Below the pieces are notes generated by a model. That model was given only the letters and a program-made list of their open reading frames with translations. It was not told where the DNA came from and ran no database searches. Below are positions 5,820-64,000 of a stretch of 64,000 bases of DNA, one piece after another. This DNA comes from Octopus vulgaris (lineage: Eukaryota): NCBI GenBank assembly GCA_951406725.2, contig OX597830.1:67518001-67582000 (forward strand), in the 5' to 3' direction. The translations under genes and the position numbers were made by a program. The first letter of the stretch is position 1; the number at the start of each line of letters is the position of its first letter.

Positions 5820-7030
5820 ACACCATCCTCAATGACTGATGTAGTAGTATTATAGTTAGCTGTAACAAGGATAAAGGTGATGCCTTATATAGAAACAACT
5901 ACAAAGGTACCAAACTGCTAGACCAGGTCATGAAAGTTACTGAGAAGGTTATAATTCAGTTGATTAGGTATAGAATTAGACTAGATGTGATGCAGTTTTG
6001 TTTTGTACCTGCCGCAGATACCATGTTCCAAATGAAACAGCTGCAGGAAACGTATTTGGCCCAAATTAACTTTCATTGACCTGGAGAAAGCTTTCGACAG
6101 ATACCCCACTCTGTTATCTGCTGGTGTCTAAGGAAGTTAGGAATTGATCAGTGACTCGTTAAAGATGCACAAGCCATGTAAGTGATGCAGTCAGTAAGGT
6201 GAAGTCGGCCATGAATACAGTGAGGAACTTAGCATACAAGTAGGGGTTCACCAATGTTCAGTTCTCAGCCCACACTTTTTCATTATAGTCCTCCAGACCA
6301 TAACTGAGGAATTCAAAGCTGGATGCTAAAGAAAACTAATATACGCTGATGATCTTGGTCTTCTGGCCGAATCAATAGTAGAACTAGAGAAGAAATTTCA
6401 GGTACAGAAGAAAAACCTAGAATCAAAGGCCTTAAAGTTAACCTAGTAAAGAGCAAAGTTGTTGTTAACAAGAAAGCAGATAAGACTCTATTTCCATCAT
6501 TTAAATTGGTCACTTTGTAGGAAAGGAGTGGGAAGTAATACCATTCATTGCATCCAGTGTAAGCCAGGGACACATAAGAGGCGTAGTGGAATCAGAGGTA
6601 GATTAACAAATAGAGTCTTCGTATATGACATGTGCAGGAAAAATAATCTCTAAAAGCACAGGGGACTCAAATGCGCAGGAGGCTCTCTTGTGGTTGTAGA
6701 TATTTTCTGTTACCTAGGTGACCAAATTAGCAATGCTCTGAAAATATTGTTTTCAAAATAAGAATAGGATGGAGGAAGTTCAGAGAACTATTACTTCTGT
6801 TGGCAAGAAAAGGACTCTCTCTTTCTCAGAGTTAAAATAGATTAAATGATGCTTGTGTGCGAATGGCTATACTCCATGGTAGCGAGACATGGGCTATGAA
6901 TGGCTATGAATATAGACAACATGCGTAGACTGGGGAAAAGTGCAATATCAGTGTGCATATATGACAAAGTGCAAACGTATTGAGAGAAAAGTTGGGCATA
7001 AGATGAAGCAAATGCAGCATGCAATTTCAT
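5820..7030 (+). mobile_element. RTE-clade LINE RT fragment, degenerate
   Basis: FIDLEKAFD, GVHQ.SVLSP, IYADDL, CRKGVGSNTIHCIQC and FCYLGD, with frameshifts and stops. Confidence 0.8.
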
Positions 7031-8009
7031 GCCTTGCACCTAGAGTAGAAACGAACATTAGCCATATGGATTCTGTGAATCTAGTTGAATTGCAAAGTAT
7101 CTATGAAACTGCCAAGTTTGATTCTTATCCTAAATGGCTGAGCCCTCATTGGATATAATTTTACAGAAACGCTAAATATACATGGATATGATTTGATATA
7201 TTTATTTAATAACCTATTTTATATTGGTACAGTTGTAAATGTATATGTGTGAGGGAGTGTGTGAATAGATCTATTTTTTAAGGTTTGATTCCTTATCTTT
7301 GTCACTTGCCTCTGTCACATAGCGTTTTCTCCACCTTTTCTGCCACTCTTAGGAATTTTCATCACATTACTACTTGTCTTTCTTTGAGAAATTACCTCTT
7401 TCTAAATTCTTACCTTTATTCTTTGCTTACCTCTCACCCTTCATCTCTGACTGAATCAATTTCTCTTGGTATAACTTTTCAAATGCCATATAATTCCTTA
7501 AATTTTAGTTCCTTTTACATTTCCTTTATTCCATTTCATACAAAAACAATTTTTCTTCTATTTTTTGCCGATTTTGCAGATCACTTGATATATTTTGGCG
7601 AAAAATTGTAAGTCTTTTTAAATTCCTATATTTTATTTTCGCTTGATCTGTTTGCATGAATTGTGATGACTACTTTGTTGAGAATTTCATCAATGAATTT
7701 ATATAAAACGAATGTTGTATATCTTGTTTATGAATATTTTTATATATTTTCACACATTGGTACAAGTTATTATTTTTTTATTCTGATACACCAAACTATT
7801 ATTCTTCAGACTAGAAGAGCCATCTATTATTTTTCCAATTAGTAGAACTGTCTTATTGGTAGATCTATATATATGTGTTATATATTTTATATATTTACAG
7901 TAGGCTTCTATTTATTATAACATTATGGCCAGTGTAGTAGTTTTCCTTTTTGTATGGTTGGATACTGCTTTTAGTATTTGCAGCTACTATATCACATATT
8001 AGTAGAGCC

Positions 8010-13280: not shown

Positions 13281-13357
13281 GTTGTCATCATAGCTGATGA
13301 GAATGGATCGTAGCTCTTAGCTCTGGCATTTGAAACTCTGAGTCCTATTATGACAAC
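13281..13357 (+). ncRNA. Type I hammerhead ribozyme with intact core and long stem I
   Basis: GTTGTCATCATAG-CTGATGA-GAATG...CATTT-GAAAC-TCTGA-GTC-CTATTATGACAAC. Stem I pairs at 12 of 13 positions. Confidence 0.8.
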
Positions 13358-13409
13358 TTACTGATTGTCCTAAACTATACATACATACATATGCTTATAT
13401 ATATATATA

Positions 13410-57654: not shown

Positions 57655-58091
57655 TGGCAAGCTGACAGAATCATTACCATGCTGAGCAAAGTGCTTTGTG
57701 GAATTTTGTTCATGATCTGGGTTCAGATTCCACTGAGGTCAACTTTGCCTTTTATCCTTTTGGGATTGATAAATTAAGAACCAGTGAAACACTGGGGTCA
57801 ATGTAATCAACTAGTTCTCTTCCCACCAAAGTCCAGGCCTTGTTCTTATAATAGAAAGGATTATTGTTATTATCATTACTATTACTATGGTAAGCAGGCA
57901 GAATCATCAACATGTTGGACAAAATGATTTGCAGTATTTTGTTCATGCTCTCGATTAAAATTCTTCTGAGGTCAACTTTGCCTTTCATCCTTCCAGGGTT
58001 AATTAATTAGGTAATAGTTGAGTACTGGAGTCGATGTGATCAACTGTCCCACCCACTAAAAAATCCAGGCCTTTTGCCTATAATAGAAAGG

Positions 58092-58136
<45 letters not shown>

Positions 58137-58889
58137 GAGTGAGAGAGCAGTGCATGCCATCAAAGTGATACTGGGGTAAAGTATATGAAGCCCAGTATAT
58201 CCATCATGACTCCCCGTCTGATAAGGGTACACCAGGCACATGCATCACAATCATATGCACGCAACATGGTTATCTTATATTAAATTAAGCTGAGCATGAC
58301 CTTGCAGGTGAGGCTTAGTTAGAATATTCTTCCGGTCAAGTAGCCCATCCCACTAAGAAGGTCCTTGAATAAGGGTTGCTCAAGGATGTTGAATGAAACA
58401 CCTGTGTTTCCAGAAGTGAATTATCCAAACCCCAAAGAATTCCTCTCAGCACATGGCTATGATGCTCCCCCACTACTTCTGATGACGATCAAAGATGCAC
58501 AATATTGCCAACCACTAAGGGATATACTCAACTGGTTATGGTCAAACAACTGACAAGCACGTCTGTTGTATTGAGCAGATTATTTGCTGTAGGCCATCTT
58601 TTATATCAAGACAAAACAATGTACATGTACTTCCAATCAGTCAAGATCAGAAGTGATATTATTGTTATTGTTATTAAGGTGGTATGCTGGCAGAATCATT
58701 AGCACGCTGAACAAAATGCATCATGGTATTTTGTCCATCGCTATGTTCTGACTTTAAATGCCACTGAGGTAGACTTTGCCATTCATCCTTTCAGGATAGA
58801 TAAATTGGGTATCAGTGAGACACTGGGGTCAATGTAATTGACTAACCCCCTCCTCTCAAATTTCAAGCCTTGTGCCAATAAAAGAAAGG

Positions 58890-58944
<55 letters not shown>

Positions 58945-58950
58945 CCATTA
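57655..58950 (+). mobile_element. Cluster of three (AAT)n-tailed tRNA SINEs with a Nin-like domain, plus an unrelated repeat at about 58137-58650
   Basis: Copies at about 57655, 57890 and 58677; each has CTTTGCCTTTCATCCTT..GAT..ATTAAG..CAGT and ends AGAAAGGATTATT. Confidence 0.8.
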
Positions 58951-59503
58951 TTATTGAATATTTCTATGATTATTGTTATCATCATCATCGATGATGATGA
59001 TGATGATGATAATGATGATTATGATAACTTATTAAATATGGAGTCAAAAGTTTCAAATGACATATTCCTTTTCATTTTCTTGTATCAACTGCAATTAGGT
59101 AACAGAACAAAACATTTCTTCTTGAATGGAGCATGTAAAAGGCATTACAATTGGATGTTATTGGTCATGTTATCCAAAATATTGTCAAAAATAGAAAATA
59201 TAAAAATTTATTTTCTCAAAGCACATGGGCGGATTTTGTCTAGATTAAATCAAATCCTAAATAATACAAGAACTTAATGTATTGATAACAGATGAATAAA
59301 AGCAAAGTTGAATCAGACATGATTTCATTTGAGAATTTAGAGGGTAAAAATATATTCTTTAAAACTATATTTACAATTTCTGCTAATACATTCCACCAAA
59401 TTAGAAAATTACTTTTCCTAATGAAACTCAAGAATATGTTTGCAAGCCATTGTTTCTGCCAATTCCCCAAACAGAAATTGAAAAATATATCAAATTTGTT
59501 TAC

Positions 59504-59678
59504 CTTCATATTCTTCAAGAAAAAGTTCTGCATATATAAGAAAATATGCTTTTCTAAATACTTCTTTAAACAAATCAAATGAAGCCGGTGTACTTGGATT
59601 GAGAATTGATTGGGTAGCAATGCCAAAGGCAGTCATGAAAGTGAAAATAATCATGGCAAAATATCCAAGGTCTCGCAT
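59504..59678 (-). CDS. TRPM: TRPM S5 + pore helix exon (MRDLGYFAMII...AFGIATQSILNP...AYFLIYAELFLEEYE)
   Basis: CTTCAG/GTAAA boundaries, 175 nt; DL..F..I......FG.A.Q.IL.P motif. Confidence 0.95.
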
Positions 59679-60404
59679 CTGAAGTTAAAGAATTTTGTTG
59701 TAAAGCAGAAACAATTAACTATTTGTTAAGTTAATATTAATTGATGCATTTAACATTACAAAATAACAAACTATCAAGTTAAAAGATATTCTATTCAAAG
59801 TGAGATTTAATTAATATTTGATTTTTTCTTTACTGTGGTGGATGTAATGGAGAGAACCTCCACAATTATGATAATTAGTGGTTGAACTGAATGTTCCTAA
59901 ACTTTTATTGTTTCCCTTCTGGAACAAGTATGCAAAAATCTGTTTTGGAAGTTTTCTTATATTGTAATTGCTTTAGTAAATACTATATCAAATGCTGCTA
60001 TAGCAACTGCTAAGAAAAATGTTAAAAATCTCTCATCCTTGTTTTTCACTTCACATCTCAGCTTATAAATTAAAATGGTGCTGAATGATTTGGCTTTAAA
60101 AGTGTCTCAATAAAATCCCTGTGTAGGATTGCGGTAGCGAAAATACATGTCTGATAATACATAACCGATAAAATCTGAAGAAATACCTCTTTAGATAAAT
60201 TATGAAAATATGGCTTTCTAATAGTTTAATATTTTATAAACAGATTTATAAAAGAGACAAGCATTTAGTTATAAAATGGCACAATTGACTGCATTTTCCA
60301 GTTTCTATGAAGTCTTTGAACTATTGTCCCAGAGGTTAACAAACCCTGCTTCCCATCCACCTGATTAGTAAACTTTTATTTACTGCTCACCAGATATCTT
60401 ACTC

Positions 60405-60620
60405 TTAATCCTTTAGCAGTCAGATTAATTTGGCAAATTTAATGCGTATTTAGTCACATTGTTTTGAAATAATCATGCATTATCTCCTAGCTTCAAAATT
60501 TTGATGATATAATTGTTTATTTCTAGAATCACATTGTTGAGTAGGTGTGAAAAGCCAGATCTGGCTTGTTTGAATATAAAAGAAGTAGAATATTTGGGCT
60601 GGATATGGCTGGTTTATTAC
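60405..60620. mobile_element. Possible TTAA-type MITE, decayed right end
   Basis: Starts TTAATCCTTTAGC; no clean second TIR. Confidence 0.3.
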
Positions 60621-61207
60621 TACATTGATAGTTACCGATAATCTGAACTCATAAACAGCAGTCATTTGACACATCACATTCTTACTTCCATTACTTCCAG
60701 AGACACATCTGAATCTCATTTTCAAATTATTTCATTCTTGGTAATGTATAGATAATTCTTCAATATCAATTTCCATCTTTCAACATAATTTACCCTTGGT
60801 TACTAATTGTGACAATTCAAGCTGAGTTAGCATTTCCTACTCTTGGAAAATAAAACTAAAACTATGTGTAAATGGAAACTGAAAGAAGCTTGTGTGTATG
60901 TGTGTGTGTCTTATCTGAAAATATGTAATGAAAACAGATAAGGGTTGGTGACAGGAAAAGAATCATCCTGTAGGAAATATGCTTCCATGAATTCTGTGTA
61001 AGACATGCAAGCATGGCAGAGTGGACATTGAAACATTAAAGGTATGATGATGATGAAGATAATGATGAGGAAGATGATGGCAGTATATACATCCAAACAC
61101 ACACACACACAGACTCACATTATTTACTCTGGTATCATGCAAGAAATTAGATATAGAAAATCAGGGCGATAATTTGGGAGAGGAGAGGGAATAGTATGGG
61201 TAAAGAT

Positions 61208-61383
61208 AGGCGCAGGAGTGGCTGTGTGGTAAGTAGCTTGTTTACCAACCACATGGTTCCGGGTTCAGTCCCACTGCGTGGCACCTTGGGCAAGTGTCTT
61301 CTACTATAGCCTCGGGCCGACCAAAGCTTTGTGAGTGGATTTGGTAGACGGAAACTGAAAGAAGCCCATCGTATATATGTATA

Positions 61384-61416
<33 letters not shown>

Positions 61417-61928
61417 TGTGTACAGTGCTCAGGTGCACTACAACTCATCTAAAGTGTATATATATAATCAGGTGTAGTTTCGGCGGATTTCGGAAAGCAT
61501 GAGGGCCTTAAAGGATGCAGTGTCATGGCAGTCAACAACTGATGCAGGCAGTTTATTCCATGCTTCAGCAACTCTGAGCGTGAAAAAATGTTTCCGAAAG
61601 TCATGGGAGCTGTGTTGTTTTCTGACTTTGTAGGCATGTCCACGTGTGTTAGACACATGGAGATCAAAAAGGTGTTCAGTGTTATTGTTGGTGAGGTGGT
61701 TGGTGAGGTGTGTGTTTGTGTGTCTTTGTTTGTCCCCCTAGCATTGCTTGACAACCGATGCTGGTGTGTTTATGTCCCCGTTACTTAGCGGTTCGGCAAA
61801 AGAGACCGATAGAATAAGTACTGGGCTTACAAAAGAATAAGTCCCGGGGTCGAGTTGCTCGATTAAAGGCGGTGCTCCAGCATGGCCACAGTCAAATGAC
61901 TGAAACAAGTAAAATAGTAAAATAGTAA

Positions 61929-61930
<2 letters not shown>
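61208..61930 (+). mobile_element. CORE-type SINE split by a CR1 insertion
   Basis: SINE head at 61208-61380 and tail at 61710-61930. Confidence 0.88.
61392..61705 (-). mobile_element. CR1-clade LINE 3' end with (ATT)n tail
   Basis: NTRGHAYKV..RKHFFTLRV..WNKLPASVV..SFK. Confidence 0.85.
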
Positions 61931-61970
<40 letters not shown>

Positions 61971-61997
61971 CTTAAAATTGAATAGAAGATCTGAAAT

Positions 61998-62043
61998 CCA
62001 CCTGATGAATGTCCTTTGAAGAGACATGAAACAATTGTAGTGG
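61998..62043 (+). ncRNA. Canonical minimal type I hammerhead ribozyme
   Basis: CCAC-CTGATGA-ATGTC-CTTTGAAGA-GACAT-GAAAC-AATT-GTA-GTGG. All core bases and stems are intact; predicted cleavage after A62039. Confidence 0.88.
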
Positions 62044-63067
62044 CGAATTTAATTTTATTTAATTTATATTAAATTTTTTTATGTATTGGATTAAGTCTTT
62101 CTTTGTTTGATTTGCAAAATAGTGGTTTTGTCTCTAATTAATATTATATTATATATATATATATATATATATTCAGCATAAACTTGTGCAAATGAAGATA
62201 TCAAAGTCAGTGACCCTGAGACATGTAATGACTAAAATATACAGTTTAATGCCACAGTATGTATAGCAGGAAATTGTGTTTGTATTTTGGTGGTATGTAG
62301 CTTGAAAATTGCATTACAGACATGATACAAGTGAAAAATGTTCAGCATACACGTTGAAGCGAAAATAATAAACATGTTGAGGAACAAATAATGAAAACAT
62401 AAAAGTACAGAGAAAAAAATGATTGCTCACAGTCAAGGTCGGATTTATAGTGGGGTAGAGTGGGCAACTGCCCTGGGCGTCTGTTAGATATTGGGAGCTG
62501 CCTGCTAAGAAGGGTATGTAACAGTCAGGCATGAAGAGGCTCAGTTTGAATATACAAGGGTAGTTTGACTTCTTAAAAAATTGATGGGTTCTCTTTTATG
62601 ATAAATCATCATCATCATCATTCATTGTCCATCGTCTATGCTGGTATGAGTTGGATGGATTGACCATAGCTAGCAAACTAGAAGGCTGCACCAAACTCCA
62701 GTCTGATTTGGCATGGTTTCTGCAACTGGATGCTCTTCCTAACACCAAGATGGTAATGGATGCTTTTACATGCTACTAGCAAGGGTGCTATATGCATGAC
62801 ACCAGCATCTGCAGCAACTGCAATTTTACTTGGCTTGATGGGTTTTATTTTCAAGCACAACAATGCCAAGGATCTCAGTCATTTCTCATTGCCTCTGTGA
62901 GGCAGATTTTGCCACATTGGAGACACTAATTAATACAATTAATTACGCTGCTTCAGTCTCAAAGCAGCTTACAATTCTCAAGGGAATTGTAAGCTGCTTT
63001 TGAGACAACAAAGAAAAGGGAAACAACAGAACACTCCTAGAAATGTATGTATGTATTTATATATGTG

Positions 63068-63099
<32 letters not shown>

Positions 63100-63311
63100 T
63101 GTATGTATGTATGTATGTATGTGTGTATGTGTGTATTTATCATTGAGTATATGTGTGTTTGAGTGTGAGTGTGTAAGTATGAATGTATATAAAAATAAAG
63201 TGATTGATAGAAAGAAATTATTGTCTCTAGGCCAAATTCCTTCTTTTGACACATGACTGAGCAAATGAACTTTGGTTGACCATTTTCAGTTAAAAGTGCA
63301 CATGTGTGCGT

Positions 63312-63343
<32 letters not shown>

Positions 63344-64000
63344 TTCTACTTCTAAACTTATTTCTGTGAGGCATTGAAAACTGGTTCTATTTTATGAAAC
63401 AAGTAAATAAATATGTAACAAAATTTAAATTTTGAATTTAGCTTTAATTGTATATATTATAAATTACATCTTTCAACAGCTAAAATCATTCTTTTTTGAC
63501 TTTAGAATTATTGCATATACATTCAAATGTATTTCATTAAATTGAACCCTTTTTTTTTACTTATTTTTTCCTATATTTTTTGTCATTTTGTCAAACACTT
63601 AGAAGTACTATATGGAAGTGGGACAAAATGAATAATTTTTGATTTCTTGTTACTTTTTCACATTTTGTACCATTGCATAATCTTTGGGAATAAAATTTGG
63701 TCGGTAGAGGTTACGTTGTTGGGAATAAAAATTGGTCAGTATAGTTTACATAATTGTTGTTGAAGTGGAAACTTTCAAACATAGGTGACAGGTGTTTATT
63801 TTCAAGAAATTTTTCCTCAAATTTGACCCAACTGTAATTGAAGTAGCTCATAAAATATCTATAATTTTTGAAAAAGCTACACAGAATATTTTTTGTTGAA
63901 TTTTTAGATTTCATTGACTTTCATTAATTTCATATCATGTGCTATTTTTCTATGATTCTCTTTCATTTGTCCAAGATATTTCAAATTTGTTGCATTTCTG

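Follow-up and report, generated by a model that had tools for sequence, protein, structure and literature searches.

The unit at positions 61967 to 62147 of a 64,000-nucleotide stretch of Octopus vulgaris DNA (contig OX597830.1, positions 67,518,001 to 67,582,000 of the forward strand; the whole stretch is referred to here as the window) is an intron-less and promoter-less end fragment of a Penelope-like element (PLE), lying in (TA)n and probably reverse-transcribed from a capped, spliced 5' leader. It belongs to a family in which we observed a removed GT-AG intron, a 5' limit situated 27 nt ahead of the donor and marked by an excess of G, two discrete 3' ends, inverted pairs and an upstream ORF with reverse transcriptase (RT) and GIY-YIG regions. 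The hammerhead ribozyme within the unit is of an ordinary and already known kind, and the value of the locus lies in its splice junction. The features of the region are as follows.

59504..59678, minus strand: exon of a TRPM-like host gene
61209..61915, plus strand: unrelated SINE, its head (61209-61372) and body (61716-61915) split by other sequence
61931..61969, no strand: (TA)n target, left part
61967..62147, plus strand: intron-less, tail-less pseudo-LTR end, or 5' leader copy, of a PLE assigned by its motifs to the Hydra clade
61967..61988, plus strand: 3'-terminal 22 nt of the 27-nt exon 1, running into (TA)n at its 5' side
61988..61989, plus strand: exon-exon junction AAG/ATC, where longer copies hold an intron
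61998..62043, plus strand: minimal type-I hammerhead, located by descriptor search
61998-62001 (CCAC) and 62040-62043 (GTGG), plus strand: hammerhead stem I, 4 bp
62002-62008, plus strand: hammerhead core CUGAUGA
62009-62013 (ATGTC) and 62023-62027 (GACAT), plus strand: hammerhead stem II
62028-62031, plus strand: hammerhead GAAA
62031-62038, plus strand: palindromic helix/loop III, ACAATTGT, suited to a dimeric fold (ACGATCGT in sister subfamilies)
62037-62039, plus strand: GUA triplet, with the predicted cut between A62039 and G62040
62130..62149, plus strand: 'short' 3' end, one of two recurrent ends (the second, the 'tail', being some 80-88 nt further on) and a putative start site of reverse transcription
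62148..62172, no strand: (TA)n target, right part

A first-pass annotation had described the motif as a textbook minimal hammerhead suited to dimeric folding. Stem I, CUGAUGA, stem II, GAAA, the palindrome, GUA and the flanking (TA)n are all present as it had placed them, and its reading of a dimer-type minimal hammerhead is upheld. A strict descriptor gave no match in 300 dinucleotide shuffles of the window, and a loose one gave three matches in the real window versus 0.023 per shuffled window. The additional statement that every conserved nucleotide is present holds for the core, the stems and GUA, but not for pair 10.1-11.1. Minimal hammerheads were reported to have a strongly conserved G10.1-C11.1 here, accompanied by an additional base following A9 (Cervera and de la Pena 2014, PMC4209133), whereas the window motif has A-U. 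Among 66 arms of the same subfamily, this pair was A.C in 45, A-U in 20 and A.G in one; an origin of T62027 by CpG decay peculiar to the window copy is consequently not supported, the same T being found in 20 of the 66 arms. The missing G10.1-C11.1 weakens the label 'textbook', not the label 'hammerhead': the motif at 61998-62043 is real and of a described class. Rfam hammerhead models gave no match at E<=5 in 58000-64000 and none at gathering score across the window, and the free folding of the motif was unremarkable (z of 0.5 and -0.47).

Nor is it the only motif of its type in the window, where it had been called the best candidate: two further type-I motifs exist, at 2259 (minus strand) and 13294 (plus strand). 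The former (2190-2265, core at 2259) has a long stem II, G-C at 10.1-11.1 and the palindrome ACATGT, in a unit that ends in (TA)n near 1978, and represents a separate high-copy family with 2,830 first-look candidates, of which 40 were scored and were 96-100% identical, some of them in inverted pairs. The latter (13288-13350, core at 13294) is hammerhead-like, with a near-palindromic helix III and (TA)n near 13400.

The unit had also been termed an orphan, with a search for family copies and a parent PLE proposed as a check; both were found. The genome search with the unit returned 1,417 first-look candidates, and among the 40 scored the full-length matches were 94-100% identical; many matches were arranged as head-to-head pairs, and no head-to-tail tandem of hammerhead units occurred among the loci examined. 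A 27-mer from the 3' part of the unit, common to several subfamilies, had 1,131 exact matches in the genome. In an alignment of five diverged subfamilies (one row, L070, was left out for wrong coordinates), the hammerhead core, stem I and four stem-II pairs were fixed. Loop III differs by subfamily, being either ACAATTGT or ACGATCGT, with the change on both sides and the palindrome kept (computed self-duplex energies of -6.4 and -10.0 kcal/mol, respectively). This combination of a fixed core and stems with a palindrome kept through change points to selection on the motif in the parent lineage and suits a dimer; we therefore infer that the ribozyme has been conserved there as a dimer-dependent motif.

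Several insertions with shared flanks are later segmental duplicates (L028, L029, L155 and L156 on C28; L195/L196; L217/L218), which inflate raw copy counts slightly. No empty insertion site was found in eight stretches at guessed paralogous places. One family copy abuts a 4.7-kb tandem array with a period of approximately 76 bp (L064:635-5347).

Longer copies of the family contain, between the positions equivalent to 61988 and 61989, an intron of 1,062-1,093 nt with the ends GTATGT...TTTTAG (GT-AG), and 19 distinct donor contexts of the form AAG/GTATG were recorded. The window unit is thus the spliced form, from which this 1.1-kb intron has been removed. Exact junctions in the genome numbered 51 for the spliced and 35 for the unspliced form, so that the retention of the 5'-UTR intron expected of genomic PLE copies does not hold for this family, and both forms are also present in sister subfamilies. 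The ORF-linked pseudo-LTRs examined, for their part, retain the intron. The GT..AG joint was also seen in contigs of X1, X2, X15 and X16, its short side being only 20-25 letters; as the joined form exists as DNA, these contigs say nothing on expression. At a separate locus with a short pLTR-ORF-pLTR arrangement (L071, G000:C10:100768644-100772825), another exon-like sequence, with CTG as its last bases, stands before the hammerheads; in L033 near 335-345 it is followed by GTAAGT, which suggests a second, upstream splice donor.

Spliced copies share a common 5' limit, the A of TCACTTC, which lies 27 nt before the donor; the window copy begins 5 nt short of this putative start site. Of the spliced arms reaching that A, 37 of 43 stop there (three are ambiguous), versus none of 14 unspliced arms (p=5e-9), the search patterns for both forms having dropped copies with C eight bases out. 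In a hand count, the base before the A was G in 18 of the 43 spliced arms, compared with 28 of 301 at seven positions further out (p=4e-7), and it was C or T in unspliced copies. The G directly follows (TA)n in two copies; in inverted joints, many of the extra G's may instead come from the partner arm through microhomology, and the joint is the same in four or five cases. An extra G of this kind has been read as a cap mark of full-length L1 insertions (PMC11702581). The common 5' limit and the extra G are what would be expected of a capped mRNA start, a site that is read here from DNA ends. At least two spliced copies run upstream of it, L024 (by 366 nt or more) and L030, which indicates that the intron was sometimes spliced in longer RNAs too.

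With regard to the parent, ORF fragments were found upstream of units 95-97% identical in L127 and L133, and one locus (L158) comprises a whole pLTR-ORF-pLTR of a sister subfamily, 80% identical in the unit. In nine of 20 loci examined, a frame beginning with one Met stays open for 820-852 aa; it is situated approximately 65 nt behind the tail where a pseudo-LTR was present. None of the 35 unspliced sites examined had an intact ORF of the window's own subfamily; the intact ORFs with a pseudo-LTR belong to sister subfamilies, 80-88% identical. Pfam and PDB sequence searches gave no name to the ORF or its relatives, and the homologues that could be named came from Argonauta and Octopus. A structural model built from a 30-sequence alignment reached a pLDDT of 83 (34 without alignment), and its best fold matches were telomerase RTs (E 5e-9). 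The motifs RIKWK (41), DKT (128), YRDD, CxCX5C (691), VVYK..YIG, CYLC (797; CxxC) and CRH (826; CxH) were present, and the predicted product is a single ORF with a telomerase-like RT and a putative C-terminal GIY-YIG, as in EN+ PLEs, the GIY-YIG call being drawn from motifs and secondary structure with no match in Pfam. Other traits of EN+ PLEs, namely hammerhead pseudo-LTRs, inverted 5'-truncated copies and a one-sided tail, were present as well.

The RWK-type, DKT, CxCX5C, CxxC and CxH motifs, together with the (TA)n target, are those of the Hydra clade, which was defined by these motifs (Craig et al. 2021, PMC8557442), and by this match we assign the parent to that clade. The element is classed as a new Hydra-clade family, set apart from Hydra-1_Obim by eye. 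An earlier assignment to Neptune was dropped, as the motifs fit Hydra. The ORF at L072:1153-3675 carries a long asparagine-rich insert (residues ~490-605), and N-rich inserts have also been described in Adineta Penelope ORFs (PMC3846280). Two other PLE-like sequences were encountered: a GIY-YIG-type ORF fragment 6-7 kb past the end of the window (L233, minus strand, ~6070-7040) and the RT of another family beside an insertion (L061, plus strand, 357-2234).

The 3' ends of the copies fall into two classes approximately 80-88 nt apart, 'short' and 'tail' (92 arms, from 64 of the 66 listed loci on chromosome C1). One short and one tail end were combined in 26 of 28 two-armed C1 loci and in 34 of 38 pairs with a ribozyme in both arms. 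These 38 pairs comprised 21 spliced/spliced and eight unspliced/unspliced cases, the remaining nine having an unclassified arm; hence, none of the 29 classifiable pairs, all from loci that came from junction searches, was mixed (p=4e-7 under independence). In 18 pairs, the short arm reached further 5' in 10 and the tail arm in seven, with one equal. Because either arm may reach further 5', the pairs are incompatible with the snap-back of one cDNA and fit two RNA-templated cDNAs. From this we infer one cDNA per break end, primed at different start sites on the same or a like RNA; the concordant splicing of the arms could also stem from one RNA molecule or from later gene conversion. A possible third 3' end was noted in L124, where one arm passes the tail and stops just before the ATG. 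Inverted pseudo-LTRs with a one-sided tail have been described for PLEs (PMC8557442), and the Poseidon element of Anolis uses two RT start sites in vitro, extends both strands and has uncut RNA as its main substrate (PMC11167929); the octopus pair pattern agrees with such two-start-site extension of both strands.

The window copy has no promoter region, start site, tail or ORF. The intron that encloses it belongs to a TRPM-like gene of the minus strand and has its acceptor at 59679 and its donor approximately 1.7 kb past the window end, in phase. Minus-strand exons of this gene were found at L233:1578-1985, L234:8613-8912 and L236:1528-1848 (Ion_trans, E 1.3e-6; TRPM2 domain, E 6.8e-11). We take the segment at 59504-59678, which has no Pfam match, to be a further exon on the grounds of splice signals, phase and likeness. 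Since the unit is antisense within the host intron, host transcription makes its antisense strand. On the upstream side, the 3' end of the SINE abuts the (TA)n target, and its tail simply supplied or abuts that target.

Among 200 listed arms reaching 62044 (the first 100 of 222 plus the first 100 of 297), approximately 180 read on through the cut and approximately six start within 2 nt of it, as judged by eye; this read-through in about 90% of the listed copies implies that the templates were mostly uncut. A surplus of 5' ends was nonetheless seen in the 17 nt at or after the cut (34/74 versus 7/40), which persisted (28/68 versus 7/40, p=0.012) when seven rows were dropped, four with the cut site further up and three from duplicated loci. 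In the C1 sample, the cut itself is the first base of three arms, while no arm begins at any of the three bases that follow, and the same was found for three of 49 with the truncated-arm pattern, which excluded read-through copies and describes truncated arms only. Mapping of ends to one reference was confounded by subfamilies on the 5' side and stayed noisy after remapping. The surplus just 3' of the cut may mean that some templates had been cut, and it could also have arisen from microhomology in AT-rich sequence or from stopping of the RT. That cleavage at GUA actually shapes the insertions, through a good share of cut templates, RT run-off and trimming of the cDNA to the nearest microhomology, would fit these ends and the fixation of core, stem I and stem II across diverged subfamilies; we find it rather doubtful in view of the predominant read-through, of the AT-rich, self-complementary character of the zone after the cut and of the fact that the same picture would result if an extended stem I halted the RT. 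A related proposal is that splicing switches the ribozyme, with exon 1 pairing with the sequence after the cut and extending stem I. When stems I and II are enforced, exon 1 of the spliced RNA is predicted to pair with 62053-62065 in an AU-rich helix of 13 bp, and different hammerheads have been described for spliced and unspliced D. virilis Penelope (PMC4209133). However, the helix is not kept in sister subfamilies (by eye), and in unconstrained folding the active-like fold was rarer in the spliced (0.0002-0.002) than in the unspliced context (0.004-0.008), which makes such a switch very unlikely.

The remaining alternatives concern what transcribed or multiplied the short copies. The first-pass annotation had set the unit just downstream of a SINE Pol III promoter, from which read-through would transcribe a self-cleaving, active ribozyme. 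The SINE is indeed on the same strand, the core is intact, the A-U variant of the window copy pairs at 10.1-11.1, and transcription would terminate shortly after the ribozyme at the T-runs of 62053 and 62074, provided that Pol III had passed the TTTT at 61618; a run of four T's is a Pol III terminator. That run lies between the ribozyme and the A/B-like boxes (61219 and 61262), which are approximately 740-780 bp upstream, so that only the 3' end of the SINE is adjacent. Of 60 sampled family loci, only 18 had SINE pieces at a distance of up to 1.5 kb, in any orientation. In addition, the copy has a single motif, whose active-like fold makes up 0.2% of the predicted ensemble, and minimal hammerheads of this class were inactive as monomers and weak as dimers in PMC4209133, with monomer cleavage dependent on protein in PMC11167929. 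With no promoter in the copy, its antisense position in the host gene, a single motif and a rare active-like fold, neither the read-through nor the claim of the best active ribozyme found support; we regard this reading as highly improbable, and the window copy is probably a dead end with an inert ribozyme. It is also unlikely, to nearly the same extent as a splicing switch, that the short copies form a self-propagating non-autonomous family (SINE-like or a monomeric retrozyme) descended from one intron-less master and served by PLE proteins in trans. The copies are young and numerous, and non-autonomous PLE derivatives and retrozymes are known (10.64898/2026.07.22.740005; PMC8557442). On the other hand, spliced copies lack promoter sequence upstream of the start site, and the loci examined contained no head-to-tail tandem of the spliced unit. 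Moreover, within a subfamily the spliced and unspliced forms carry the same stem-II variants, and both forms occur in several subfamilies, which argues that splicing has recurred.

Under the preferred reading of a reverse-transcribed, spliced leader, Pol II would start at the initiator-like TCACTTC in the pseudo-LTR and the cap-proximal intron would be spliced out. The endonuclease of the element would cut (TA)n, and its RT, primed within the leader at either of two TA-rich sites that precede the ATG, would run towards the cap through a mostly uncut hammerhead. For the window copy, the cDNA end would have been joined to the target by microhomology, while in inverted pairs it would have been joined to a second cDNA, primed from the other break end at the other start site. 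Leader-primed copies, having neither promoter nor ORF, would be dead ends. Priming in the 3' pseudo-LTR, by contrast, would yield copies that keep intron and promoter, and this difference would account for the 'intron retention' of working PLE copies. A more far-reaching reading, which we consider unlikely as a whole, takes the family as a fossil record in which a dimeric RT used capped, spliced, sense RNA as template and began at two internal start sites, one per (TA)n cut end; PLE 'intron retention' would then be survivor bias, spliced leader copies being promoter-less dead ends, and the palindromic hammerhead would stay mainly uncut and bring two RNAs of like kind together on the enzyme, which would account for the constant agreement in splicing between paired arms.

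Dozens of intron-less copies that end at the same 5' base with an extra G indicate that a capped, spliced, sense RNA was copied and inserted, and such copies may map the start site of the element from DNA alone. They also supply figures against which the in vitro picture of two-ended insertion from two start sites can be tested, and with intact relatives present in the genome an in vitro test is within reach. Furthermore, spliced leader copies bear on why PLEs usually keep their introns, a retention whose reason has been called unknown (PMC8557442) and which has been ascribed to selection (PMC2377424) or to an antisense or unspliced template (PMC3846280). In the open-access literature we found no report of intron-less genomic PLE copies, and none on octopus hammerheads beyond Craig 2021. 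Hammerheads in PLE pseudo-LTRs, also beside the intron end, inverted ends and tails are already known.

Compared with the minimal hammerheads described in PLE pseudo-LTRs (PMC4209133), the octopus motif has the same 4-bp helix I, palindromic helix III and place in the pseudo-LTR, and single and opposite-strand copies are dispersed in both cases; a hammerhead close to the intron's 3' end is likewise described for D. virilis Penelope. Unlike those described there, the octopus family lacks G10.1-C11.1 in both registers, the pair being A.C, A-U, A.A or U-A depending on the subfamily; its intron stops 9 nt short of helix I and not at helix I itself, and its spliced form exists as genomic copies. 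An initiator in the pseudo-LTR, a short exon and a 5'-UTR intron are shared with D. virilis Penelope and Chlamys-3_cRei, whose described copies keep the intron, whereas intron-less octopus copies are as common as intron-bearing ones (PMC2377424, PMC3846280, PMC8557442). Hydra-1_Obim (PMC8557442) has in common with the octopus family R.KWK, DKT, YRDD, the CxCX5C linker and, at the C-terminus, GIY-YIG with CxxC and CxH, and the (TA)n target, the hammerhead and inverted ends with a one-sided tail are also found in both; it differs in stem I and loop III and in a visibly divergent protein (by eye). Relative to the Hydra clade as described there, the octopus element is longer (6-7 kb versus <3 kb), has a tail of ~80-88 nt instead of 30-40, and possesses a 3-3.5-kb 3' region, a 1.1-kb leader intron and an N-rich insert. 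Non-LTR retrozymes (10.64898/2026.07.22.740005) resemble the octopus unit in being non-coding and PLE-derived, with a type-I hammerhead; octopus units, however, are single or head-to-head, with no head-to-tail tandems among the loci examined. Finally, the Poseidon element of Anolis (Frangieh et al. 2024, PMC11167929) has two internal RT start sites from which both strands are extended, as we propose for octopus, and the two systems are alike in uncut RNA as the main substrate and in AT-rich targets. The 3' ends differ in that those of octopus are TA-rich, lie ahead of the ATG and resemble (TA)n, while those of Poseidon are inside the ORF and not homologous to the target.
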